A model generated the notes under the pieces. The model was not told where the DNA came from, searched no databases, and worked only from the letters and a program-made list of their open reading frames with translations. Below, piece by piece: positions 1-19,267 of a stretch of 20,997 nt of DNA. Within the stretch, counting starts at the first letter, position 1, and the number at the start of each line of letters is the position of its first letter. This stretch comes from a virus (lineage: Duplodnaviria; Heunggongvirae; Uroviricota; Caudoviricetes): IMG/VR virus record IMGVR_UViG_2534681759_000007; one strand, 5' to 3'. A program made the translations under genes and the position numbers.

Positions 1-1164
1 TTACGCCTTCTTTATATCCTCCATAATTCCAGAGTGGGACATATTTGGGACATTATCACCAAAAATGTCGTCTATTTTCCTCGCATGCTCTGTCAAATGA
101 TTAGGCGCAAGGTGAGCATACCTACGAACCATTTCTATGGACTCCCATCCGCCCATTTCCTGAAGCACTGATAATGGGACGCCTGACTGAATCAGCCAGC
201 TTGCCCAGGTGTGTCTGAGGTCATGGAAACGGAAATCTTCAATTCCTGCACGACGACAAGCTGATAGCCATGATGTCTTGCTGTCGATGCGCATCTTCCT
301 GACCGCAGGCGTTGATGTTCCATCTGCTCGCTTAGCCGCCTTGGTATGTACAAACACCCATTTGTGATGCTTGCCTATTTGATCACGCAACACTTTACAG
401 GCGGTATCGTTCAGCGCCACACCAATGGCGCGGTTTGATTTGCTCTCTTCTGGATTCACCCAGGCAACTCGTCGCTGCATGTCGATTTGTTGCCATTCCA
501 GATTTATGATGTTCGACTTTCTCAGACCAGTTGCCAGCGCAAACTTGACGACAGATTTCAGTGGTTCGGGGCACTCATCAATAAGGCGTTTTGCTTCCTC
601 CTTTTCCAGCCATCTGACTCGCTTGTTTCTGACCGCTGGTATCTTGATGACAGGCGCTTTTTCCAGCCACTTCCAGTCGCGTTCTGCAGCACGGAGAATG
701 GCCTTTATCATGGCAAGATGCTTTGCCTTTGTCTGAGTTGATACTGGCTTTGGTTCATAAACAGGCGGTTCTTTACCTTTCCTGATGGCGGCCTGAACTT
801 TCTGTTTCCATATTTCTTTCGTCTTTCTGTTATGCATTCTGCTTACAGCAGAGTAAATCTTTGCCTCCGAGATATCTTTAAGCCTTATACCCTCAAAATG
901 TTCAAGCCAGAACTCAATCCGGCTTTTATCTGAATCGAGAGATTTTTTATCAGCTTTTTCCTCAAGCCATCTTAGGCAGGCCTCTTCAAAAGTGACATCA
1001 GGTAAATCCCCTAGCTTTTCTACTCGCCAGAGTTCTGCTTTTCGCTTGTCGTGCAACTCCTGAGCTTGCCGCTTGTCCTTTGTGCCAAGAGATTCCTTAA
1101 TTCGTTTCCCGCCCGGGAGCGAATACGAGGCATACCATATTTCATTTCTGCGGAAGAGTGACAT
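1..1164 (-). CDS. int: Phage integrase, tyrosine recombinase family
   Basis: 387-aa ORF with ATG at 1164 and stop at 1-3. C-terminal region [15 protein letters not shown]...VRRYAHL fits the R..H-x-x-R..Y catalytic signature of tyrosine recombinases. First gene at the left edge, as expected at a prophage end. Confidence 0.9.
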
Positions 1165-2005: not shown

Positions 2006-2320
2006 TCACCGTTCCTTAAAGACGCCGTTTAACATGCCGATCGCCAGGCTTAAATGAGTCGGTGTGAATCCCATCAGCGTTACCGTTTCGCGGTGCTTCT
2101 TTAGTACGCTACGGCAAATGTCATCGACGTTTTTATCCGGAAACTGCTGTCTGGCTTTTTTGATTTCAGAATTAGCCTGACGGGCAATGCTGCGAAGGGC
2201 GTTTTCCTGCTGAGGTGTCATTGAACAAGTCCCATGTCGGCAAGCATAAGCACACAGAATATGAAGCCCGCTGCCAGAAAAATGCATTCCGTGGTTGTCA
2301 TGCAGCCTCCCGACGGGCAA
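2006..2320 (-). CDS. Hypothetical phage protein (start uncertain)
   Basis: 104-codon open frame beginning with TTG at 2320 (AAGGA upstream); in-frame ATGs at 2287 and 2221 are alternative starts. Co-directional with neighbours, no family recognised. Confidence 0.4.
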   Translation of the reverse strand: MPVGRLHDNHGMHFSGSGLHILCAYACRHGTCSMTPQQENALRSIARQANSEIKKARQQFPDKNVDDICRSVLKKHRETVTLMGFTPTHLSLAIGMLNGVFKER

Positions 2321-2855
2321 GAATCCTTGAGCCGAACGCCATCAACTCTCCACGATCAACAGTCGTAAAGTGGCAGTGTGTACGGGGGTATGGGTGCCAG
2401 ATAATGAGCATCGAGCCTTTATTATTTCCACTGACGGGTTTCTCAGTGAGTGGGTTAATAAATGCCAGTCGTCCTGCCGTGATGAATCTGACCTCACTGG
2501 CGGTTTGTATCGCTTCATGAAACCATCCGACAGATGTGTCAGCAGGCAATAACATTACACATCCCACACTACTGAATTTGTTTTCAGTGGCTGCCTTTTT
2601 CACAAAAGGGGAAATATTGCTGTATGGTGGATTCAACCAGACATAACCAGAGGCATATCCCATTGCTTCAGGCCATGAAGTGGTTAATGTGTTCTGCTCC
2701 TGTGAGATAAAAAGCCGACATAGTCGGTTTTTTTCGCTGGCGGCAGCATCAAGTTGAAAAACGAACTCTGCATTAAGCGCAGCAAAAATCTCTGGTGGTG
2801 TGCGCCAGCTGTCGCGATGTTCGGCAGGAGTATTGCTTCCGGTGAAATCAGTCAT
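2298..2855 (-). CDS. Phage DNA N6-adenine methyltransferase (Dam-like)
   Basis: 185-aa ORF containing the NPPY motif (YVWLNPPYSN) typical of amino-methyltransferase motif IV; ATG at 2855. Confidence 0.75.
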   Translation of the reverse strand: MTDFTGSNTPAEHRDSWRTPPEIFAALNAEFVFQLDAAASEKNRLCRLFISQEQNTLTTSWPEAMGYASGYVWLNPPYSNISPFVKKAATENKFSSVGCVMLLPADTSVGWFHEAIQTASEVRFITAGRLAFINPLTEKPVSGNNKGSMLIIWHPYPRTHCHFTTVDRGELMAFGSRILARREAA

Positions 2856-4845: not shown

Positions 4846-4911
4846 TTAGTGATTCAGACCGTTGCCGCGTCCGTCGAGAAAAACTTCCACGAGCAAGTCA
4901 CGGGTATAAGT
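4846..4911 (-). pseudogene. kil: 3' remnant of kil homologue, separated from its 5' part by the IS100 insertion
   Basis: Joining 6866-7095 to 4846-4911 across one copy of the TAAGT duplication restores a continuous frame ending ...IERTYTRDLLVEVFLDGRGNGLNH-stop. The stop (cac taa) sits at the position I remember for the lambda kil stop relative to gam, about 75 nt upstream of the gam ATG. Confidence 0.55.
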
Positions 4912-4918
4912 TGTCAAT

Positions 4919-6865
<1,947 letters not shown>

Positions 6866-7095
6866 TAAGTGCGCTCAATGCCGCGATGCAGATAAAGTCG
6901 TCCGCGTAAATTAGCTGATGCAGTCCAGGTACCATCTTTGCGTTTGACCAGCATTCCTGGCATGACCGCACCGCGATTAACGGTCTGCGTTCCGTAATGT
7001 TGATGAACCATAAAAACTCCTGCCCGTAAGCTGGGCTGCTGAACATATAAAGACTTCTGCGCGTATTCAGGCGGTGGATGGCCGCCGGTTGTCAT
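6866..7095 (-). pseudogene. kil: 5' part of kil homologue interrupted by IS100 (true start uncertain, possibly an internal Met)
   Basis: The open frame from 7095 runs into the IS100 right end at 6865, where the translation switches to IS-derived sequence. Internal Met codons at about 6963 and 6954 would give a reconstituted product of about 50 aa, similar in size to lambda Kil. Confidence 0.55.
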
Positions 7096-7264
7096 AACTA
7101 AGCCGCCTCGTTGAAGCGACTAAGGTATGAAATGTTGAGTTGATTTCAGCTGGTCACACCGACGTTCACGCGTCCGTTTCATCCCTCGCACTCCCCGAAG
7201 CCTGCTGAAATTCAAGCTGCGGATCTAAGCGGTCATCGCAACGGTGAATCAGGTAGTTGCCGTA

Positions 7265-7360
7265 TCGTTGTGTTGTTGCGATGAACTTATTTAAAACTAT
7301 AGTTGTTTTATCGTCAACAACAAAAGTTGTTTTATTGGTTGTTTTAGATATAACTGGTTG
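7265..7360. promoter_or_regulatory. Putative OL/pL operator-promoter region (GTTGTT/AACAAC dyads)
   Basis: Clustered dyad-symmetric sites, e.g. AACAACAAAAGTTGTT (7316-7331) and TTGTTTTATCGTCAACAA (7303-7320), sharing half-sites with the cI-cro intergenic region. Position between the rex-slot gene and the leftward early operon matches lambda OL. Confidence 0.5.
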
Positions 7361-7488
7361 TATTTAGGATGGATTTATTTTGTGACTTGCATCGCACAGC
7401 GATAACTGAAGCGAGGTCGTGGTGGTTTTTTGAACGGTTTGTGTGATGAGGGGAGGCAAAAGAAAACCCGGCACGACGGCCGGGGAAA

Positions 7489-8352
7489 TCATTTCGCATC
7501 TACAATAAATAACCTGTTTATCTGGCCTTTTTTAACAGTAGCCTTTGCGGTTATAGTGAATACTGCAGATGGATCACCTTTGGTTGATATATATGCACTA
7601 AGAGCTCTAATATACGGGTTATTCTTCTTTCCTGCAGCTGGATCGCTAATTTCAGCAGTGATTCTCTTTTTTGAGTCATCACCATCTAAAATTATTTTAG
7701 CTGTCATATTTTGTGCATCAAATTCTGTAAGAAAAGCACGATACTCACGAAGACCGAGAACTTCATCATCATCAAGCCTATCAATTTCAGCTTTATCTCT
7801 CTCGTTAACTTTTAGAAGGCAGCCGTCAACATTTGTTGCAACACTTATCTGATCGCAAGTATTACCAATAGGTGATACTGCCTGCCTTACAGAGGGGCGA
7901 AGCTCTACAGCCATTCGGTCAATCAAAGAGATCAACTTATCAATGGTTCCAGCATCCTTGTTTCCTAGTGCCTCTATGGCCTTTTCAAGTGACTGCTGCA
8001 AAGCTTTCATTTCATCTTTCTTGTTAGAATTTCTCGCAAAAATATATTGTAGTATTGCGCCAAGTATAGTTGCGGCGATCCCCGAGAACAACTGGTTCTG
8101 AGTGGCGAAGTTAAGAACTGCTTCAAGAGTAAAGCAGTTAGCTTTTGCTTCGCGTGCGTAAACCTTAACTTCCTGATAATTAATGTATTTACTATATTTT
8201 TGTGTAACAGAGAAAGAAGCTGCTGTTGAGAGAACTTTAGAAAAACCCTTTAGGGATTCTCCTAGGCAGTTCAAATCTATTTCATGATTTAAAGCATCTT
8301 TTCCGTCATACCTAAGAGAGATTTTTATATCCTGTAAAGCGTCACAATCCAT
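7489..8352 (-). CDS. Hypothetical protein in the rexAB-equivalent slot downstream of cI; candidate superinfection-exclusion/abortive-infection protein
   Basis: 287-aa ORF, ATG at 8352, 66 nt after the cI stop and co-oriented with it; visibly AT-rich relative to flanking phage genes; one central hydrophobic segment ([18 protein letters not shown]); no family recognised. Confidence 0.6.
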
Positions 8353-8418
8353 AAATCGCTCTCGTCTAATTCTAATTAAATTTACTATCCCCTAAACGAC
8401 TCATCAGCACAGTACTGA

Positions 8419-9108
8419 TTATCCATGTTTCCTGTACGTCTGGGGCATGCTCCCAATAACCTTACCGAAGATGAACACCCGGTTCATCTCGTCTTTCTCG
8501 ATCGGGTCCCACGGTGAGTAGCTCTTGTTATCAGAGATAACCAGCAGCTTATCCTTCATCATTTGCAGGCGCTTTACATGGGCTGTGTCGTCGTACAGAA
8601 ACGCATAGATACCATCACCGTCGAAAGATTTAACCGTGATATCAACGAACAGCAGATCACCTGGTTCGATCGTTCCTGACATGCTGTCACCACGCACGTT
8701 AATGATGCGGATATTTTCCGCCTTCCTACCATCGAACATGTGACGAGCATCGTCAAACGAGTACTCAACCGAGCGTAGAACTTCTACAAACTCACGGTTG
8801 ATGACTCCCGGCCCAGCACTGACTTCTATATCAAGAACGTCAATCTTGAAGTATTTGGAATGGCTGACAGTTGATTGTATTGGTTGCACTGTACTGTCTG
8901 ACATATTTCCAACGCCAGAAGATAACCATTCTGCGCGCACACCCAAAGCGTTCGCGATCTCCACGATTTTAGTTGTTTGATTAGCTTTCCCTGTTTCGAT
9001 TTTCTGAATAGCAGCCTGGCTAACCCCGACCAAATCCCCAAGCGCCTTTTGTGTAAGGCCTCGCGCTAATCTGGCTTCTTTAAGTCTTTCTGAGAGTGTT
9101 GTTTTCAT
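8419..9108 (-). CDS. cI: CI-like prophage repressor (N-terminal HTH plus C-terminal S24 LexA-like peptidase domain)
   Basis: Start taken at MKTTLSERLKEARLARGLTQKALGDLVGVSQAAIQKIE (ATG 9108), an XRE-type HTH. C-terminal GDSMSGTIEPGD and HVKRL supply the Ser/Lys dyad of autocleaving repressors. Divergent from cro across an operator-containing spacer. Confidence 0.85.
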   Translation of the reverse strand: MKTTLSERLKEARLARGLTQKALGDLVGVSQAAIQKIETGKANQTTKIVEIANALGVRAEWLSSGVGNMSDSTVQPIQSTVSHSKYFKIDVLDIEVSAGPGVINREFVEVLRSVEYSFDDARHMFDGRKAENIRIINVRGDSMSGTIEPGDLLFVDITVKSFDGDGIYAFLYDDTAHVKRLQMMKDKLLVISDNKSYSPWDPIEKDEMNRVFIFGKVIGSMPQTYRKHG

Positions 9109-9114
9109 AGTCCA

Positions 9115-9180
9115 AATGTACAACCAAGGTTTTATTCCATCAAACGAAAATGGTTGTTGACTAAAAACAACCATAGTTTT
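9115..9180. promoter_or_regulatory. Putative OR operator / pRM-pR region
   Basis: Perfect inverted repeat TGGTTGTT-N7-AACAACCA at 9151-9173 plus additional GGTTGT half-sites in the 104-bp cI-cro spacer. Confidence 0.55.
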
Positions 9181-9212
9181 AATCTTGATTCAAATTAACC
9201 ACGGAGGTTGTT

Positions 9213-9443
9213 ATGAACCCAGCTATCAAAACAGCGATCAATATCGTTGGTTCACAAAAGAAACTGGGCGCTGCTTGCGAAGTTTCACAGCAGGCCGTCT
9301 ATAAGTGGCTTCACAACAAAGCAAAGGTATCCCCTGAACATGTCGGCAGCATTGTTACGGCTACTGGTGGAGTAGTGAAGGCATACCAGATTCGCCCGGA
9401 TCTTCCGAAGTTGTTTCCACACACCGAAAAGAACGCAGCTTAA
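9213..9443 (+). CDS. cro: Cro-like repressor (YdaS-type HTH)
   Basis: 76-aa ORF with GGAGG Shine-Dalgarno sequence, divergent from cI; motif KKLGAACEVSQQAVYKWL is a Cro/YdaS-type HTH. Confidence 0.8.
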   Translation: MNPAIKTAINIVGSQKKLGAACEVSQQAVYKWLHNKAKVSPEHVGSIVTATGGVVKAYQIRPDLPKLFPHTEKNAA

Positions 9444-9512
9444 ATTTCCATTTCACGCTCTTTAACAATAAGCAATCAACTTAACAGTCAATTCAAACTA
9501 AAGGAGTCAATT

Positions 9513-10052
9513 ATGCAACCACTTACATACCAACAGACTAGCGGATTTAGCCCGACTGCGGTGATAAATCGTTCTCAAACAAAACAGGTGCCAGACCACG
9601 AAAAAATCCGTGATGCCGTCCGCGCCTGGTCGGCTGTAGATAATCAGGATGTCGTTGCCGCACTCATTGTGAATGAGTATCGGGAGCAGGGCGACGGCAC
9701 CATCGATTTCCCTGATGATGTCAGCCGTGCACGCCAGAAGCTGTTCCGCTTCCTCGATAACAAATTCGATTCTGAAAAATACCGAAATAACGTGCGTGAA
9801 CTGACCCCGGCAATTCTGGCGGTACTACCGCTGGAATATCGCGGTTACCTGGTTGAGCAGGATAGCTTCATGACTCGGCTGGCTGAAATGGAAAAGGAAC
9901 TCAGTGAGGCAAAACAGGCTGTCATTCTCAACGCACCACGCCACCAGAAACTGAAGGAAATTAGTGAAGGTATTGTGTCGATGTTTCGTGTGGACCCGGA
10001 TCTGGCTGGTCCATTGATGGCGATGGTTACCACCATGTTGGGGGCAATATGA
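9513..10052 (+). CDS. YdaT-family protein in the cII position
   Basis: 179-aa ORF with AAGGAG Shine-Dalgarno sequence. The segment RELTPAILAVLPLEYRGYL resembles the conserved core I remember from Rac-prophage YdaT proteins. It occupies the cII slot between cro and O. Confidence 0.55.
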   Translation: MQPLTYQQTSGFSPTAVINRSQTKQVPDHEKIRDAVRAWSAVDNQDVVAALIVNEYREQGDGTIDFPDDVSRARQKLFRFLDNKFDSEKYRNNVRELTPAILAVLPLEYRGYLVEQDSFMTRLAEMEKELSEAKQAVILNAPRHQKLKEISEGIVSMFRVDPDLAGPLMAMVTTMLGAI

Positions 10053-10138
10053 CAGGCTCAGAAATGGCGAAAGCCGGTCTGCGGGAACAGAGCCGACTTT
10101 CAGGCGCAAATCGTAACGCACTCATTGCGGGAGGAATT

Positions 10139-11068
10139 ATGGCAAACACTGCTGAGATATTCAATTTTCCAGTGCCGGATGTGGCACAAAAGGAGCCGCG
10201 CGTGGCAGATCTCGATGATGGTTATACGCGCATTGCAAATGAGTTGCTGGAAGCTGTGATGCTGGCCGGATTAACACAGCACCAGCTTCTGGTCTTCCTG
10301 GCTGTCATGCGCAAAACATATGGCTTTAATAAAAAACTGGATTGGGTGAGCAACGAGCAACTTTCCGAATTGACCGGGATATTGCCGCACAAGTGTTCTG
10401 CTGCAAAAAGCGTTCTGGTAAAGCGTGGGATTCTTATTCAGAGCGGGCGGAATACCGGCATTAATAATGTGGTCAGTGAATGGTCAACATTACCCGAATC
10501 AGGTAAGAAAAATAAAGTTTACCTGAAAGAGGTAAATTTACCTGAATCAGGTAAAAAAAGTTTACCCAAATCAGGTAAAGACGTTTACCCGAATCAGGTA
10601 AACACAAAAGACAAACTAACAAAAGACAATATAAAACCTTATTCGTCCGAGAATTCTGGCGAATCCTCTGACCAGCCAGAAAACGACCTTCCTGTGGTGA
10701 AACCGGATGCTGCGATTCAGAGCGGCAGCAAGTGGGGGACAGCAGAAGACCTGACCGCCGCAGAGTGGATGTTTGACATGGTGAAGACCATCGCGCCATC
10801 AGCCAGAAAACCGAATTTTGCAGGGTGGGCTAACGATATCCGCCTGATGCGTGAACGTGACGGACGTAACCACCGCGACATGTGCGTGCTGTTCCGCTGG
10901 GCATGCCAGGACAACTTCTGGTCCGGTAACGTGCTAAGTCCGGCCAAACTCCGCGACAAGTGGACCCAGCTCGAAATCAACCGTAACAAGCAACAGGCAG
11001 GCGTGACAGCCAGCAAACCAAAACTCGACCTGACAAACACAGACTGGATTTACGGGGTTGATCTATGA
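10139..11068 (+). CDS. O: Replication initiator O (lambda O family)
   Basis: Start chosen at MANTAEIFNFPV (ATG 10139, GGGAGG upstream), which aligns with the lambda O N-terminus MTNTAKILNF...VADLDDGY. An upstream in-frame ATG at 10049 overlaps the previous stop and is an alternative start. Contains iterons inside the coding sequence as in lambda O. Confidence 0.85.
   Translation: MANTAEIFNFPVPDVAQKEPRVADLDDGYTRIANELLEAVMLAGLTQHQLLVFLAVMRKTYGFNKKLDWVSNEQLSELTGILPHKCSAAKSVLVKRGILIQSGRNTGINNVVSEWSTLPESGKKNKVYLKEVNLPESGKKSLPKSGKDVYPNQVNTKDKLTKDNIKPYSSENSGESSDQPENDLPVVKPDAAIQSGSKWGTAEDLTAAEWMFDMVKTIAPSARKPNFAGWANDIRLMRERDGRNHRDMCVLFRWACQDNFWSGNVLSPAKLRDKWTQLEINRNKQQAGVTASKPKLDLTNTDWIYGVDL
10490..10602. 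repeat. Replication origin iterons (5 copies, one degenerate, about 23-bp spacing) inside the O gene
   Basis: Copies of TTTACC[C/T][G/A]AATCAGGTAAA at about 10490, 10518 (degenerate), 10538, 10560 and 10583, each internally palindromic (TACCTGA/TCAGGTA), followed by an A-rich stretch to about 10640. This is the lambda-type ori layout. Confidence 0.8.
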
Positions 11069-11787
11069 AAAACATCGCCGCACAGATGATTAACTTTGAC
11101 CGTGAGCAGATGCGTCGGATCGCCAACAACATGCCGGAACAGTACGACGAAAAGCCGCAGGTACAGCAGGTAGCGCAGATTATCAATGGTGTGTTCAGCC
11201 AGTTACTGGCAACTTTCCCGGCGAGCCTGGCTAACCGGGACCAGAACGAACTGAACGAAATCCGCCGCCAGTGGGTGCTGGCTTTCCGGGAAAACGGGAT
11301 CGCCACAATGGAACAGGTTAACGCAGGAATGCGCGTAGCCCGTCGGCAGAATCGACCATTTCTGCCATCACCCGGGCAGTTTGTTGCATGGTGCCGGGAA
11401 GAAGCATCCGTTACCGCCGGGCTGCCAAACGTCAGCGAGCTGGTTGATATGGTTTACGAGTATTGCCGGAAGCGTGGCCTGTATCCGGACGCAGAGTCTT
11501 ATCCATGGAAATCAAACGCGCACTACTGGTTGGTTACCAACCTGTACCAGAATATGCGGGCCAATGCGTTGACTGACTCGGAATTACGGCGCAAGGCTGC
11601 CGATGAACTTGCCCATATGACTGCGAGAATTAACCGTGGTGAAGCGATTCCCGAGCCAGTTAAACAGCTTCCGGTTATTGGTGGTAAGCCGCTATCCCGT
11701 ATACAAGGATTGGCAAAGTTGGCTGAGATTCGCGAGAAGCACGGACTGAGAAGACGTAAACAATTAACGGGAGTGAAGCTAACCTGA
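11065..11787 (+). CDS. P: Replication protein P (DnaB helicase loader, lambda P family)
   Basis: 240-aa ORF recognised as highly similar to lambda P (MKNIAAQM.NFDREQMRRIANNMPEQYDEKPQVQQVAQIINGVFSQLLATF...); the last ~20 residues differ from my recollection of lambda P. Start overlaps the O stop (ATGA). Confidence 0.92.
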   Translation: MKNIAAQMINFDREQMRRIANNMPEQYDEKPQVQQVAQIINGVFSQLLATFPASLANRDQNELNEIRRQWVLAFRENGIATMEQVNAGMRVARRQNRPFLPSPGQFVAWCREEASVTAGLPNVSELVDMVYEYCRKRGLYPDAESYPWKSNAHYWLVTNLYQNMRANALTDSELRRKAADELAHMTARINRGEAIPEPVKQLPVIGGKPLSRIQGLAKLAEIREKHGLRRRKQLTGVKLT

Positions 11788-12132
11788 ACTACCTTCAAGA
11801 CACATAAAACCTTTCCCCCAGAAAATATAGTTCATCCTGCGGCATCAACCAGACCGTAAACATTCTGACAAAGCAGGGCGATCTGGTCGATGTCAGCAAT
11901 ATCTAGCGAACGATTCACTACCGATTGGTAACCGAAGAGGAAATCTCTTGGCACAAAAGCACCAATCAGATTTTCGATGATGGCCCCCAAGCCCGGTGAT
12001 GACGCGAATTTTACTAGCCTACGAGAGGAACGGAGCATGAAGACAGCACCGAGCACAGTGTAACTATTCGATTTTTTTCTGTTTGATTTTTCGACATACT
12101 ACATTATATAGCTCGATATCCTTTCATTTTAC

Positions 12133-13326
12133 TTATTCAATTAACGGTACTTGTTTGTTGCAGAATACTAATATTGCATCTTGAGTAAGTTTTTTATGCA
12201 TATGCTTTAGCGGCTCAATGTTAGTCTCGTAACCGAAAGTAGCGAAAAGAGTTGGTTCTATAATGAAATTTTCTTCATAAGCTTTTAGATCAAATGCTCT
12301 CTTTGCAATTAATCTAACTGCTTTCTTTCTAATGCGTGAATTATATCTATTCTCTATGCTAAGTTTAGCCATGTTTTCATCGATGTTGTTTTTTTGTTTT
12401 TTTAGTATAATTTGAATGTGATCATCATCAATTTGGCCATCTCTATATATATAATCAATGTCATAATTAAAATCAAAAAGCTGAGTGTCATTTACACCTT
12501 CAAGAAAAGGATTTGAAAATGGGCTCATGATCGGATCGAGTGATTTTTTATAAGTACTATTGCATTTAGTGCAGCTAGGAATTAAGTTAAATAAACTAAA
12601 GGAGATCAACGGATATTTGTACTTAGGTATGAAATGATCAAATGCTGGCCTGTAGCTAGTACCTGTATGGTCTTCTACTTGTTCAATTTCTTCACTGTTG
12701 CAATATGGGCATATGCTAATGTCTAAAAAACTGTTCAATTGATACGCTGTTTCTCTATCAATAAGTGAGTATTTAAATATTTCAGAAATATTTTTAACCC
12801 ATGATGGAAATAACTTAATGGTATTTTCCTTTAAAGGACCACCATTCTTGATACTTATAAGATTAAGAATCTTATCTCTTAAACTAGATAATTTTTGTGG
12901 TGAGAAATGTGTATTTAATATATCCTCAAGTATTAGGCTTTGTGTAGTTTGAGAGAAAGATGTGATTATTTTGATGGCATGTGCTAGTTCATTATAAACT
13001 ATTTTTTTGTTTTCTTTTGTTTTTAAAGGTAATTGTAGGTTTGTTAATGGTTGTAAATTTAAGTGCCTTAAAAAATAATCAGGAGAATAGTACTCACACA
13101 CAATTGGGTGTTTGTTGTATATTTTGATGATTATATTTTTTAATCGTTTGGGTTTTGAAAAAACTAATTTTCTGATAGTTTTTTTGTTGATTGTATTTAG
13201 AAACTCTACTTCATCGGGAGTAATGTTCAGTAACTTCCTCTGCTTCACGCGTTTATTAACTTTGCTTACTATTTTAGAAAAGGATATTTTTACATCAACA
13301 TTGAAGTCTTTGTTTATTTTTATCAT
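12133..13326 (-). CDS. HNH-family nuclease (PtuB-like), 397 aa, second gene of the AT-rich two-gene island
   Basis: HNH/His-Me finger signature at residues ~206-256 (nt ~12559-12711): CPYC...EDH...FDHFIPK...NLIPSCTKCN. Protein is Lys/Asn/Ile-rich and the DNA is strongly AT-rich; start is 9 nt downstream of the ATPase stop. Confidence 0.8.
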   Translation of the reverse strand: MIKINKDFNVDVKISFSKIVSKVNKRVKQRKLLNITPDEVEFLNTINKKTIRKLVFSKPKRLKNIIIKIYNKHPIVCEYYSPDYFLRHLNLQPLTNLQLPLKTKENKKIVYNELAHAIKIITSFSQTTQSLILEDILNTHFSPQKLSSLRDKILNLISIKNGGPLKENTIKLFPSWVKNISEIFKYSLIDRETAYQLNSFLDISICPYCNSEEIEQVEDHTGTSYRPAFDHFIPKYKYPLISFSLFNLIPSCTKCNSTYKKSLDPIMSPFSNPFLEGVNDTQLFDFNYDIDYIYRDGQIDDDHIQIILKKQKNNIDENMAKLSIENRYNSRIRKKAVRLIAKRAFDLKAYEENFIIEPTLFATFGYETNIEPLKHMHKKLTQDAILVFCNKQVPLIE

Positions 13327-13335
13327 TTTTTTTAC

Positions 13336-15123
13336 TCATTTCTCAAAAGAATCTGTTTTATCATTGTTTTTGTTTAACTTCAGATCAATAAGATTTATGA
13401 GAAGTTTATTTTTAATTTGTGATAGTATGGTTTTTTGATGTTTATTTAAATTACCGTCATCTGAGTTTTTTATTATTGAGTTTAGATAATTATGTGCGTG
13501 CTGTCCTATTGTAGCATCAATAAAAAAACCATTTATATATAATTCTGATATGGTTGCTCCGAAACCAAACTCTACTTTCTTAGTATAGGTTCCTTGATTA
13601 TGATCTCTTTCAAGATATATTATATCTGATGGCAAAAAATCACTTGCGAGTATAGGGGAGTGAGTTGTAAATACTAATTGAATATTTTTACTTTGTTTAT
13701 ATCTTAATGTTAAATCTATAATTTCTGAAAAAATAACTCGTTGCCATTCAGGGTGTAGATATAAATCACACTCATCTAATAATATTATAATATTTTTGCT
13801 GTTGCTATGTTCTATAGAATCATAAAGTTGATTGAAAAGGTTTAATTTTGCAAACTCTCCTGAACTAAGTGAATCCCAACCATACTTAAATCGCGATGAT
13901 ACGCCATTTGGTAACCTATCAACTAATCTTATTAACTCCATAATCTGCTTTGGTTCTTCAACTGTGAAAGATAAACTATCAACTGGGTCTCTTGCTGTGT
14001 TTTCTAATATATCAGCTATATTACCTATAATGTCGGAGATATGTTCAGATAACATTTCTATTTTTGACTGAAATTTAACATTAACGTTAAATTCATCTAA
14101 AGTCTCTAATATAGTTTTTGCTGGATCTTTTTCTTCAAGATACGCGCGACACAAGCAAAATAAATAAACAGTCTCACATATGTCTTTAGGGATTTTTGAT
14201 GTCTTGAGTAAATGCCATGTTATTGCAGGCAAAAGCATCAAGTAAATTATTTTGTGATATGAAAAGGTTGCGAGGAAATTTAATGATCTTTCTTTGTTAA
14301 AAATAATGCTAATAATAAAATCTTCATCGTAATCTATCCCATGATTGAGTATATCCACAAGTGAAATACCTAAAGAATCTAAATCACGTTCAATATATCT
14401 AGGGAGTTTATTGTTTTTAATTCTATCATTCAACGTATCAAAAAAGTATTCAATAGCTCCAAAAAGTCCTTTGTCACCAATATCATTGTTTTTTATAATA
14501 GAATTTATTTTATATACTGGTGAGTTTTCTATTTCAAATTGAAATTTAGTATTAAGTCTTGATAAATTGTCTTTAGCCCATGAACTGTGGTCTGAAAATG
14601 AAATTAATTGCTTGAGTAATTTCTTATTGCGTGTTTTACTGCCTTGCAAAAAATATGACAGTGATAAATCTTTAGAAATCGAATCGTTTTTTTTCTTTTT
14701 TTGTCCAACTAACATACTTTTGAGGTCGATTGTGTTATTTATCTTTATTAGATTGATTTTGTTTCTTCTAAAAAAATGTTCATTATTATCAATTAGTTCC
14801 GTTTGCATTTTGGATAATATTACAGGAGGTTTGCAATTGCTTGTGATAATTATAAGTTTATCATTTTCATTCCAGATGCTATAACCGCTACCTTCAAAAT
14901 CGTAAATAAAGCTACTAATGAAATCTAAAATTGATGACTTTCCAACACCATTTTTCCCTAAAATTAATGTACAGGGAATATTGCTATAATAGTCACGACT
15001 TAAATCTTTCTTAGCAATTGTAAGGACGTTACCTTTATGGCTAAAGGTAAATTTACTTGAGGTGGGGAGGGACAGCTTATTTAAACCTTTATAATTGTGG
15101 ATATAAGTGTATATTAGTTCCAT
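13336..15123 (-). CDS. ABC/SMC-like ATPase (AAA_15/AAA_21-type, PtuA-like), 595 aa, first gene of the two-gene island
   Basis: Walker A GKNGVGKSS (nt ~14935-14961), signature-like LSSGE (13855-13869), Walker B IIILLDECD (~13765-13791) and H-loop FTTHSP (~13654-13671), with a ~350-aa helical insert between Walker A and the signature. Strongly AT-rich. Confidence 0.8.
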   Translation of the reverse strand: MELIYTYIHNYKGLNKLSLPTSSKFTFSHKGNVLTIAKKDLSRDYYSNIPCTLILGKNGVGKSSILDFISSFIYDFEGSGYSIWNENDKLIIITSNCKPPVILSKMQTELIDNNEHFFRRNKINLIKINNTIDLKSMLVGQKKKKNDSISKDLSLSYFLQGSKTRNKKLLKQLISFSDHSSWAKDNLSRLNTKFQFEIENSPVYKINSIIKNNDIGDKGLFGAIEYFFDTLNDRIKNNKLPRYIERDLDSLGISLVDILNHGIDYDEDFIISIIFNKERSLNFLATFSYHKIIYLMLLPAITWHLLKTSKIPKDICETVYLFCLCRAYLEEKDPAKTILETLDEFNVNVKFQSKIEMLSEHISDIIGNIADILENTARDPVDSLSFTVEEPKQIMELIRLVDRLPNGVSSRFKYGWDSLSSGEFAKLNLFNQLYDSIEHSNSKNIIILLDECDLYLHPEWQRVIFSEIIDLTLRYKQSKNIQLVFTTHSPILASDFLPSDIIYLERDHNQGTYTKKVEFGFGATISELYINGFFIDATIGQHAHNYLNSIIKNSDDGNLNKHQKTILSQIKNKLLINLIDLKLNKNNDKTDSFEK

Positions 15124-15547
15124 TATATAACCAATCTCTTAAATATGAAAAAACATAATGGGGTGATAGGCGTATTTGAAAAATACACGCTACCGCCACC
15201 TAGCGTTAAGCTGGGAGTGTTATTTTTATATTTTACCCCAAGTATTTGTTTTATGCAATTGTATCATCACATCTTTTGAAAGTTTGCTTTCTAAATGTAA
15301 TTGTAATTTTAAACGGGTTTAATTGTTTTAAAGTGTTTGGGTGATTTGTTTTTCGAGGTTGCCTTCATAAATTAAGAGATAAAAACGTTGTAATGTATTT
15401 TTATATGAGTGAGCTAATAAATGAAATCTTGATTGAAAATTATAGGTTGGCGGTTACTTAAATTTGATTTTCCAAAATCAGATCGTCATAATTATCGCAT
15501 CGGAGCCTGAACACCTCCGGTGACTTCTGCGCTAAACGGGGACGTTT

Positions 15548-15649
15548 ATGCGCACATACAATCTAAACTCTCTTCTCCCTTCACAGATGCAGAAATGCAC
15601 CTGCGATTCTTTGCATCCAACGTTTGACCTCTGCGGAGGTGAAGCGTGA
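15548..15649 (+). CDS. ylcH: Small DLP12-type protein YlcH-like (33 aa)
   Basis: My own translation: [33 protein letters not shown]; its stop overlaps the GTG start of the next gene. Assigned from memory of the DLP12 gene order, so moderate confidence. Confidence 0.45.
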
Positions 15650-16101
15650 ACCTCCCACAAGACGGCATCAAATTACATCGCGGTAACTTCACCACTATCG
15701 GTCAGCAGATCCAGCCTTATCTGGAGGACGGAAAATGCTTTCGCATGGTGCTTAAACCGTGGCGCGAGAGACGCAGTCTTTCCCAGAATGCACTCAGCCA
15801 CATGTGGTACAGCGAAATCAGCGAGTACCTCATCAGCAGGGGGAAAACGTTCGCTACTGCAGTATGGGTAAAAGATGCACTCAAACACACATACCTCGGT
15901 TATGAAACCAAGGACTTGGTTGATGTCGTAACCGGCGAAATCACTACTATCCAGTCGTTACGCCATACCTCCGATCTTGATACCGGAGAGATGTATGTCT
16001 TCCTGTGTAAGGTTGAAGCCTGGGCGATGAATATTGGCTGCCACCTGACTATTCCGCAGAGCTGCGAGTTCCAGCTGCTGCGCGACAAGCAGGAGGAGTA
16101 A
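15646..16101 (+). CDS. ybcN: YbcN/NinB-like nin-region DNA-binding protein
   Basis: 151-aa ORF, GTG start with GGAGG 9 nt upstream; sequence [15 protein letters not shown]...[12 protein letters not shown] recognised as DLP12 YbcN-like, with the S-x-x-QN-x-x-x-W motif shared with NinB. Confidence 0.8.
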
Positions 16102-17708: not shown

Positions 17709-18806
17709 TTAGAACTGGTAAACCAGACCTACAGCAACGATGTCATCAGTGCTTACACCGAGTGCTTTAGTGAAGTCATTTTTGTCAAGCAGGTTGATTT
17801 TGTAATCAACGAAAGTTGACATATTTTTGTTGAAGTAATAGGTGGCACCTACATCAACATATTTGACTAAGTCCTGATCGCCCCATACTCCAAGATCCTT
17901 ACCTTTAGATTGCAGGTAAGCAACGGACGGACGCAGACCGAAATCGAACTGATATTGTGCAACAGCTTCGAAGTTTTGAGCTTTATTAGCAACGAAGTGA
18001 TCAGCAAATACAGTCATATTCTGGGTTTCAGAATAGGTAGTGGCCAGGTAAATGTTGTTAGCGTCATATTTCAGACCTGCGGCCCAAACTTCTGCATTTT
18101 TACCGGAAGCAAATACTTCAGGAAGAACTTTCCCTGCATTAACTTGAGTGTCGGTACGATCAGATTTCGCATAAGTTGCACCGATACCGAATCCTTCGTA
18201 TTCATAGGTAGCAGAGAAACCGAAGCCATCACCGTTACCTTCGGTGTAGTTATCGAAATCGCTACGATCGTTTTTGCCTTGGTACTGAGCAGCAAAGTTC
18301 AGACCATCAACCAGGCCAAAGAAGTCGTTGTTACGATAGGTTGCAACACCAGTGGTGCGACCAGTCATGAACACATCTGTTTGGGTCCAGGTATCGCCAC
18401 CGAATTCTGGCAGAACGTCAGTCCACGCACCGATGTCGTATGCTACACCGTAGTTACGGCCGTAATCGATGGAGCCGTAGTCACCGAATTTCAGGCCAGC
18501 GAAGGCAAGACGGGTTTTATCTTTGGAGGAACCTTGAGATTCAGCGCGGTTGCCTTTGAATTCATATTCCCACTGACCGAAACCAGTCAGTTGATCGTTG
18601 ATTTGGGTTTCACCTTTGAAGCCAAGACGGGCATAAGTAGTATCACCATCATCTGCATCATTAGAGGAGAAGTAGTGCTTAGCATTAACTTTCCCGTACA
18701 GATCCAGCTTGTTACTGTCTTTATTATAAATTTCAGCTGCCTGAGCAGACATCGCCATCAGTACTGATGCAGCTACAGCAGAAATTGCCACTGTTAATTT
18801 TTTCAT
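17709..18806 (-). CDS. nmpC: Outer-membrane general porin NmpC/OmpD-like, apparently intact
   Basis: Start at [23 protein letters not shown] (signal peptide) followed by [17 protein letters not shown]... and C-terminal ...VGLVYQF, i.e. hallmark porin N- and C-termini. Encoded antisense between Q and the lysis cassette. Confidence 0.9.
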
Positions 18807-19233
18807 CGTGAGCCCTTTTTTTGAACTATTATTAAAAAATGATGTCACTGCGCGATAAATATTCATCTAATCAATATGATTATTTCAAGATGTAAGTTTT
18901 GGTTTCTCGTTTGATTTGTGAAGTAGATCTCTATTTTTATCTGAACTTTTTTCTATCGAATCCTATTCATGGCTCTTGGCTGAATAAAAATAAATCTATT
19001 AGCCAATTTATATTAACGGTTGTTATTTATAAGTGCTCTATGATTTGAAGGTTCAATTTAAATCGGCTAAAAATAACACTGGAAATTATTTGTTGGTTAT
19101 TTGTTGAGATTTGCTTATGTATTTGTAGTGGTGTTTTCAATACTCGGTAGCATTCTCGCAAATATCATTTAGTGGTTTACGTACGTAAAAAATTGGTTAT
19201 GCTGTTAAGAGTGGTTACTTCGTCACACAGCTT

Positions 19234-19267
19234 AAACCCGCCGTCGAGCGGGTTTTTCCATTTTTTG
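19234..19267 (+). terminator. Intrinsic terminator upstream of the lysis cassette (tR'-like)
   Basis: GC-rich hairpin AAACCCGC-CGTCGA-GCGGGTTT followed immediately by a T-run (TTTTCCATTTTTT) on the plus strand, about 110 nt before the holin start. Confidence 0.6.

Follow-up and report, generated by a model that had tools for sequence, protein, structure and literature searches.

A candidate Septu-family defence system of the PDC-M62 type carried as cargo in a DLP12-like prophage of Escherichia coli

IMG/VR virus record IMGVR_UViG_2534681759_000007, a DNA stretch of 20,997 nucleotides that is called the window below, is part of an E. coli prophage and carries two adjacent genes for an ABC-type ATPase and a long HNH nuclease. 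We consider it likely that this pair is an intact Septu-family candidate defence system of the PDC-M62 long-nuclease subtype, which a DLP12-like prophage carries as cargo in its ren/nin slot. An original prediction, made from the sequence of the window and a list of its open reading frames (ORFs), had already described a horizontally acquired ATPase and HNH gene pair with the architecture of Septu, and this description is supported by profile searches, fold comparison, the conserved pairing of the two genes and purifying selection. The minus-strand ORFs of 595 and 397 codons that it had reported, with the ATPase gene first and a gap of 9 nt between the two, were recovered at exactly the same coordinates (Table 1). 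As about 8% of random codons are stops at 29% GC content, ORFs of these lengths are not due to chance.

The ATPase, the nuclease and their family

Matches to PADLOC-DB were judged by hmmscan E-values, and PDC-M62 was the top match for both proteins, by a wide margin and at or near full length. Eight PDC-M62A models match the ATPase, and in the alignment with PDLC04734 (4e-44) residues 1-570 lie on profile positions 1-548 of 597. The nuclease matched the PDC-M62B models PDLC04743 (1.5e-33) and PDLC04741 (8.8e-26; residues 1-347 aligned to positions 1-323 of the 401 in the profile). Since both genes are adjacent, stand in the same order as in PDC-M62, match its models and show no structural difference from it, the pair is a member of this group. 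The earlier suggestion of a possibly undescribed variant has to be dropped, as both proteins are full-length members of a catalogued family. PDC-M62, with its A and B components, was catalogued by PADLOC (Payne et al., bioRxiv 10.1101/2024.01.29.577857) among 145 untested PDC systems, which are 'guilt-by-embedding' candidates from inside BREX, DISARM and type I restriction-modification loci. In a survey of the Bacillus cereus group 203 loci were called both Septu and PDC-M62 by PADLOC, and the supplementary table of that survey gives the DefenseFinder label 'Septu' to PDC-M62 protein pairs in Bacillus. The Enterovibrio and B. cereus relatives of the present pair match PDC-M62 models too. PDC-M62 is best regarded as one branch of a broadly defined Septu family, and standard defence-finding tools would flag the pair already.

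Other families in PADLOC-DB matched less well. The PtuA model (4.7e-19) matched the C-terminal lobe of the ATPase and the PtuB model (2.8e-8) matched the HNH core of the nuclease, while the AriA, AbiLi, GajA and retron I-A ATPase models were weaker still. OLD models were also weaker than PDC-M62. PDC-M01, an ATPase with an HNH protein of about 280 residues, follows the same logic and is co-called with Septu by PADLOC in Bacillus. Its PDC-M01B models match the HNH core and its flanks (3e-12), but this is far weaker than the PDC-M62 match; these models are 216-366 long, and the N-terminal 100 or so residues of the nuclease are left unmatched. PARIS AriA/AriB, Gabija GajA, class 1/2 OLD and AbiL have a TOPRIM nuclease, either fused or separate, instead of an HNH nuclease, and rank lower by both sequence and fold.

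For the larger protein the original prediction had named the motifs of an ABC ATPase (Walker A, signature, Walker B and H-loop) and proposed a profile search for this fold. In that search the ATPase was above the cut-off for Pfam AAA_21 and AAA_15. All of the motifs were found and are conserved in 34 homologues; besides the Walker residues listed in Table 1, the signature residues S420, G422 and E423 and the H-loop T487-H488-S489-P490 are invariant or nearly so. Numbering of the protein gives K62 as the Walker A lysine, which corrects the K61 named previously. The best solved relatives of the ATPase by sequence are all PtuA, and PtuA proteins also appear to be its closest structural matches in a fold comparison.

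In the family alignment of the nuclease, residues C206, C209, D230, H231, N247, C255 and N256 are invariant, and C252 is kept at 90% or more. The Pfam HNH match was under its gathering score (18.8 versus 21.4 bits). The clear HNH motif of the original prediction thus stands not by the Pfam threshold but by its invariant residues, by the PADLOC models and by the fold, and it is on these that the HNH identity is based. Residues from about 160 to 397 have the fold of a complete PtuB, i.e. a zinc-knuckle HNH domain and a three-helix C-terminal domain. The fold matches, with their match values in brackets, were 8ee7_C, Septu PtuB (10.5; 187/234), 9kjx_F, retron-Eco7 PtuB (10.2; 181/210), 9n6b_F, retron I-A PtuB (10.1; 188/224), and 9e8z_E, Ec83 PtuB (7.4; 163/210). 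A phmmer search of the nuclease against PDB sequences returned no relevant match.

It had been estimated that about 200 residues N-terminal and 140 residues C-terminal to the HNH core were additional to a typical PtuB. About 160 N-terminal residues are indeed extra, whereas the C-terminal part belongs to the ordinary PtuB fold. A structural search with the N-terminal domain found no match, and only five relatives of it were found in 1.84 billion representative proteins; three of these are full-length proteins (391-400 residues) in which the match is N-terminal, and the remaining two are short fragments of an N-terminus. PHROGs contains near-identical families for both the ATPase and the nuclease, annotated as of unknown function. 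The nuclease is split there into phrog_9626 (residues 1-108) and phrog_8644 (residues 76-397), which suggests that some prophage genomes have the gene divided, or wrongly called, close to the N-terminal domain.

The cassette shares with Septu the two-gene order of ATPase and then HNH protein, together with intact Walker A and B motifs, signature, H-loop, HNH His/Asn residues and Cys4 set. In stand-alone Septu of E. coli (PDB 8EE4/8EE7; Ec-B88) the nuclease is about 230 residues long, whereas the present one has 397 with its additional N-terminal helical domain, and the ATPase is 465 residues long, compared with 595 and a larger helical insert here. Sequence similarity to stand-alone Septu is confined to the C-terminal lobe of the ATPase and the HNH core, and the second Cys pair is a CxxC in the present nuclease (C252/C255). 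The Enterobacterales clade is also distant from the Bacillus members of PDC-M62, with nuclease identity of approximately 23% and ATPase similarity only in the C-terminal 150 or so residues. Retron type I-A PtuA/PtuB (Retron-Eco7/Ec78, Ec83) differs in that no gene lies between promoter and ATPase here: the coding strand has no ORF of at least 40 residues from the conserved promoter to the start of the ATPase gene, and there is no other long ORF in the island, where opposite-strand ORFs are all 108 residues or shorter. Neither a retron nor any other Rfam family was found in positions 11700-15700. With no intervening gene and no Rfam match, it follows that no reverse transcriptase or msr/msd RNA accompanies the cassette. 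The retron-specific N-terminal extension of PtuA would not be expected in this ATPase.

The AT-rich island, its promoter and its leader element

E. coli TW10828 has an identical copy, for which the RefSeq annotation gives tRNA-Arg, int, lambda-type exo/bet/gam, an S24 repressor, a cro-like regulator, ydaT, O and P, followed after P by the island, a small ORF, ybcN, ninE, ybcO, rusA, ylcG, quuD, a porin gene and lysis genes. The host element is a DLP12-like lambdoid prophage. The TW10828 copy is defective, with insertion sequence (IS) elements inside int and a terminase gene. Its gene order from P to ybcN, together with a degraded remnant of ren, bears out the proposal that the pair occupies a variable cargo slot between the replication genes and ybcN. 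The cargo starts directly after the broken ren, which has stop codons in all three plus-strand frames, and ends just before the ybcN region.

An AT-rich block of about 3.4 kb had been predicted at roughly 12060-15500, and the composition agrees with this. GC content is 0.289 inside 12061-15460 and 0.48 and 0.46 in the exact flanking segments, and both GC steps are completed within about 40 nt; a sliding profile gave 0.25-0.32 over approximately 12000-15500, with flanks of 0.48-0.55. At the right junction, near position 15461, homology to about 3,000 other E. coli prophages and genomes starts again. On the left side, similarity to common lambdoid P genes stops near 11690, approximately 100 nt before the P stop codon, indicating a mosaic junction inside the 3' end of P. 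The entire island was found in 6 of 5,426 complete E. coli genomes.

The region upstream of the ATPase gene was aligned across five genera at first and later across seven. Two conserved islands, a promoter and a leader element, were seen in otherwise diverged AT-rich DNA. The columns of the sigma-70-like promoter are invariant across five genera, and the promoter is present in Citrobacter too. Its consensus score of 8/12 is under the 9/12 needed by a generic promoter scan, so the evidence for it is conservation and not a consensus match. From the aligned sequences, the cassette is predicted to have its own conserved putative promoter, pointing against the early rightward operon of the phage. 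The generic scan itself returned 23 sites versus 21.7 in shuffled sequence, which is no excess, and two minus-strand sites that it placed at the 5' end of the ATPase gene were rejected in favour of TTGCAT/TAAAAT since their -10 hexamer overlaps the start codon.

The 13-mer that ends the leader element, GTGGCGGTAGCGT, reads GTGGCGGTAGC(G/A)T across genera, and its 11-nt core is invariant in seven genera although synonymous sites are saturated. There is one copy of it per cassette locus. The arms of the preceding hairpin vary in sequence and remain able to pair in Pantoea, Citrobacter and Atlantibacter. The leader matched no Rfam family, and a match to snoRNA sR39 (E 0.045, 20.7 versus 50 bits) was located elsewhere and was spurious. 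A structured RNA is not claimed, ViennaRNA z-scores being significant in two of seven species; nor is pairing between the leader and the coding sequence, for which an energy of about -13 kcal/mol fell within the 1-5% tail of the background. The terminator-like hairpin at 15206-15187 was not taken as a terminator, as it is part of the conserved leader and its T-run is not conserved in other genera. A genome-wide scan for the leader motif CTRRGTGGCGGTAGCGT gave at least 80 matches in unrelated taxa, none of them with the cassette among the matches listed, where about 140 would be expected by chance.

Table 1. Positions of the features discussed in the text, in coordinates of the window
Feature	Position	Strand	Details
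ptuA-like ABC/OLD-type ATPase gene (PDC-M62A)	13336..15123	-	595 aa
Walker A codons G56-K57-N58-G59-V60-G61-K62-S63	14935..14958	-	G56, N58, G59, G61 and K62 invariant in 34 homologues
Walker B codons ILLDE, 447-451	13771..13785	-	D450 and catalytic E451 invariant in 34 homologues
Long ptuB-like HNH nuclease gene (PDC-M62B)	12133..13326	-	397 aa
Family-specific N-terminal helical domain	12847..13326	-	Nuclease residues 1 to ~160; absent from characterised PtuB
HNH / beta-beta-alpha-metal core and Cys4 zinc knuckle	12547..12717	-	Nuclease residues 204-260
Sigma-70-like promoter (putative)	15230..15258	-	-35 TTGCAT (15258-15253), 17-nt spacer, -10 TAAAAT (15235-15230)
Leader element	15187..15215	-	Short hairpin (CCCAGC / GCTAGG), then GTGGCGGTAGCGT (15199-15187)
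AT-rich cargo island	12061..15460		3.4 kb, GC 0.289; two genes and promoter-leader region
Degraded ren remnant	11842..12006	+	Marks left edge of slot; 73% identity to annotated 'protein ren' genes
Integrase gene	1-1164		Looks intact
Dam-like orphan N6-adenine methyltransferase gene	2298-2855	-	Pfam Dam 2.3e-56; PADLOC orphan methyltransferase 8e-32
IS21-family element	4978-6779	-	istB 260 aa, istA 340 aa
DUF7946 + DUF7947 protein gene	7489-8352	-	287 aa; lower GC, 0.38-0.40
General porin gene	17709-18866	-	385 aa; Porin_1 1.2e-156
AT-rich stretch past porin gene	~18500-19250		GC 0.33-0.37

Distribution of the cassette and alternative readings

Full-length homologues of the nuclease with 43-84% identity occur in Serratia, Morganella, Enterobacter, Citrobacter, Pantoea, Atlantibacter and Ewingella, and remoter ones in Enterovibrio (31%), Pseudoalteromonas and the B. 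cereus group. The ATPase family has a parallel distribution. At all nine other loci, i.e. those of the seven first-named genera, Enterovibrio and B. cereus, the ATPase gene lies directly before the nuclease gene, and the loci examined have no conserved third gene in common. The ratio of nonsynonymous to synonymous substitution rates (dN/dS) against six orthologues was 0.04-0.20 for both genes, indicating purifying selection; the N-terminal domain of the nuclease is constrained, yet faster-evolving than the PtuB-like part. In 50,697 phage records there was no DNA match and one weak protein match, and PLSDB plasmids gave distant matches only, each restricted to the surroundings of the HNH core and to less than 40% of the protein. 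Chromosomes and prophages are thus the only known sources of the close family. On a 2.1-kb ENA metagenome contig, a predicted protein of 487 residues (P0015) shares 89% identity with the nuclease over 57% of the latter's length and also carries the replication-protein domains PF07261 DnaB_2 and PF25888; a chimera from gene calling or assembly, at the junction of a replication gene and the cassette, is the probable explanation.

The setting of the cassette varies among these genomes. In Pantoea and Enterobacter it lies between lambda P and the DUF1367/RusA/Q genes, antiparallel to them as in E. coli, and in Citrobacter it is at the start of the nin genes (DUF1367/NinG/Q), again antiparallel, in a prophage with replication genes of a different type. 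The Morganella cassette is at a prophage end, adjoining tail-fibre genes, and the Ewingella cassette is in a prophage remnant near ybcO. In Serratia it is found beside an IS3-family transposase among housekeeping genes, and in Enterovibrio and Atlantibacter the cassette stands alone among housekeeping genes, in Enterovibrio between speAB and rlmA. In B. cereus it lies in a cluster with other ATPase and nuclease genes. The B. cereus locus (4862-14435) has a second AAA_15/AAA_21 ATPase (619 residues) followed by a 411-residue protein for which no Pfam match is recorded, as well as a faint HNH_4 protein (350 residues) and a PIN_8 protein, and looks like a defence island of tandem ATPase-effector pairs.

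These settings bear on whether the pair might instead be an addiction module of the toxin-antitoxin type, with a nuclease toxin held by the ATPase, that stabilises the prophage or island rather than defending the host. PtuAB displaced from its retron restricts the host and arrests its growth (PMC12819146), and the cassette persists in a prophage of which one copy is defective, by IS elements in int and the terminase gene, and also occurs beside IS elements. Such behaviour is nonetheless compatible with defence by abortive infection, as many systems of that kind act as toxin-antitoxin modules, and the closest characterised relatives are demonstrated defence systems. Where the cassette is chromosomal and outside mobile elements, as between speAB and rlmA in Enterovibrio, stabilisation would have no obvious object. 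We therefore regard a role in addiction as unlikely.

It is very unlikely that the pair is an accessory repair or recombination function of the phage, in which a Rad50/SbcC-like ATPase and a nuclease would work in replication or recombination of the prophage itself. The cassette is antiparallel to the early operon, with its own conserved promoter and foreign composition; it is missing from nearly all related prophages, as the count of complete genomes above shows, and it occurs outside prophages. The nuclease fold is specifically that of PtuB, not Mre11/SbcD, and the best profile matches are all to defence families.

A restriction-like nuclease, of type IV or coupled to the ATPase, that needs a modification partner is a highly improbable reading. 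The ATPase has a weak match to TIGR04435, 'restriction system-associated AAA ATPase' (1.6e-14), but at 53.5 bits against a cut-off of 300; the PDC families were discovered inside BREX, DISARM and type I restriction-modification loci, and the prophage does contain a Dam-like methyltransferase gene, which is, however, 9 kb away and a common lambdoid gene. The original prediction had raised the case of a restriction-type context with an adjacent methyltransferase, and no methyltransferase adjoins the pair at any of the nine loci. Equally improbable is a selfish, homing-type HNH endonuclease cassette that moves between phage genomes, even with HNH homing endonucleases frequent in phages and the cassette seen in differing slots and hosts.

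Some points weigh against a Septu-family defence system itself. The ATPase scored 48.5 bits against the 500 required by the NCBIfam PtuA model NF041760, the nuclease scored 13.9 against the 150 required by the PtuB model NF041761, and the match of the nuclease family profile to solved PtuB is only marginal (E 0.027). The nuclease is also below the cut-off of TIGR02646 (14.8 versus 52.15 bits). From the nature of these three models, which are equivalog or subfamily models of the retron branch, their failure would exclude that branch and not Septu in the broad sense. No phenotype has been published for any PDC-M62 or long-PtuB member, the PDC systems being explicitly untested, and the ATPase-nuclease complex, its trigger and its target are wholly inferred. 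The host prophage may be partly decayed, as the IS-hit copy of TW10828 suggests, so that expression of the cassette in the present strain is uncertain.

Other prophage genes and the proposed mode of action

Elsewhere in the window, an IS21-family element lies between the exo/bet/gam and immunity regions. The integrase gene of the window looks intact, while in TW10828 an IS100 copy lies inside the integrase gene; the window thus belongs to another of the six strains with the island. Beside the S24 repressor gene, where lambda has rexAB, is a gene for a 287-residue DUF7946/DUF7947 protein with a weak PADLOC match to the candidate PDC-S42 (1.5e-4) and a match to phrog_5147 (annotated as of unknown function); this gene could be a second one with a cargo or exclusion role. 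There is no linkage between the Dam-like orphan methyltransferase gene and the ATPase-HNH pair. The nmpC-type cargo slot known from DLP12-like prophages is filled by a porin gene, which is antiparallel between the Q antiterminator and the lysis genes, with AT-rich DNA directly past it in window coordinates.

Work on characterised relatives gives an indication of how a Septu-family pair of this kind might act. Septu Ec-B88 needs the Walker A and B motifs of PtuA and the H/N residues of PtuB, and cleaves tRNA-Tyr (PMC13096335). Stand-alone Septu PtuAB is a DNA-nicking hexamer that is inhibited by ATP and reportedly sensitised by a phage tail-fibre protein (PMC12819146). PtuB's C-terminal domain is clamped by those of PtuA, and the zinc finger is essential; in retron-Eco7 PtuB the catalytic H57 and the Cys4 finger (C43/C46/C78/C90) are both required for defence (PMC12673091). 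By analogy, in a lysogen the ATPase oligomer would keep the nuclease inactive through contact of the C-terminal helices of both proteins, residues 525-591 of the ATPase and 331-389 of the nuclease, and a phage-derived cue together with ATP hydrolysis or depletion would release or activate it. The nuclease would then cut nucleic acid, the reported targets in relatives being tRNA-Tyr and supercoiled DNA, and phage replication would be halted with the growth of the infected cell as the cost, i.e. by abortive infection.

We speculate that the N-terminal helical domain of the nuclease and the larger insert of the ATPase probably alter the assembly, restraint or triggering of such a complex. More tentatively, there is some chance that these two regions form a different restraint or sensing module, with a trigger or target unlike that of canonical Septu, and, separately, that expression is controlled via the GTGGCGGTAGCGT leader, either by an RNA- or DNA-binding factor or through autoregulation by the complex.

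The PDC-M62 branch is abundant in the B. cereus group and has never been tested. No new class of system is opened by the present cassette; what it offers is a way to extend and dissect a known one. Two features deserve to be followed up, the family-specific N-terminal domain and the conserved leader element. With a size of 3.4 kb and a conserved native promoter the cassette is easy to clone. If active, it would give the long-PtuB branch of Septu its first E. coli example that is amenable to experiment and would show what an HNH nuclease under the restraint of an ATPase gains from the additional N-terminal domain, and the ren/nin junction of DLP12-type prophages would join the known defence-cargo slots of lambdoid phages.

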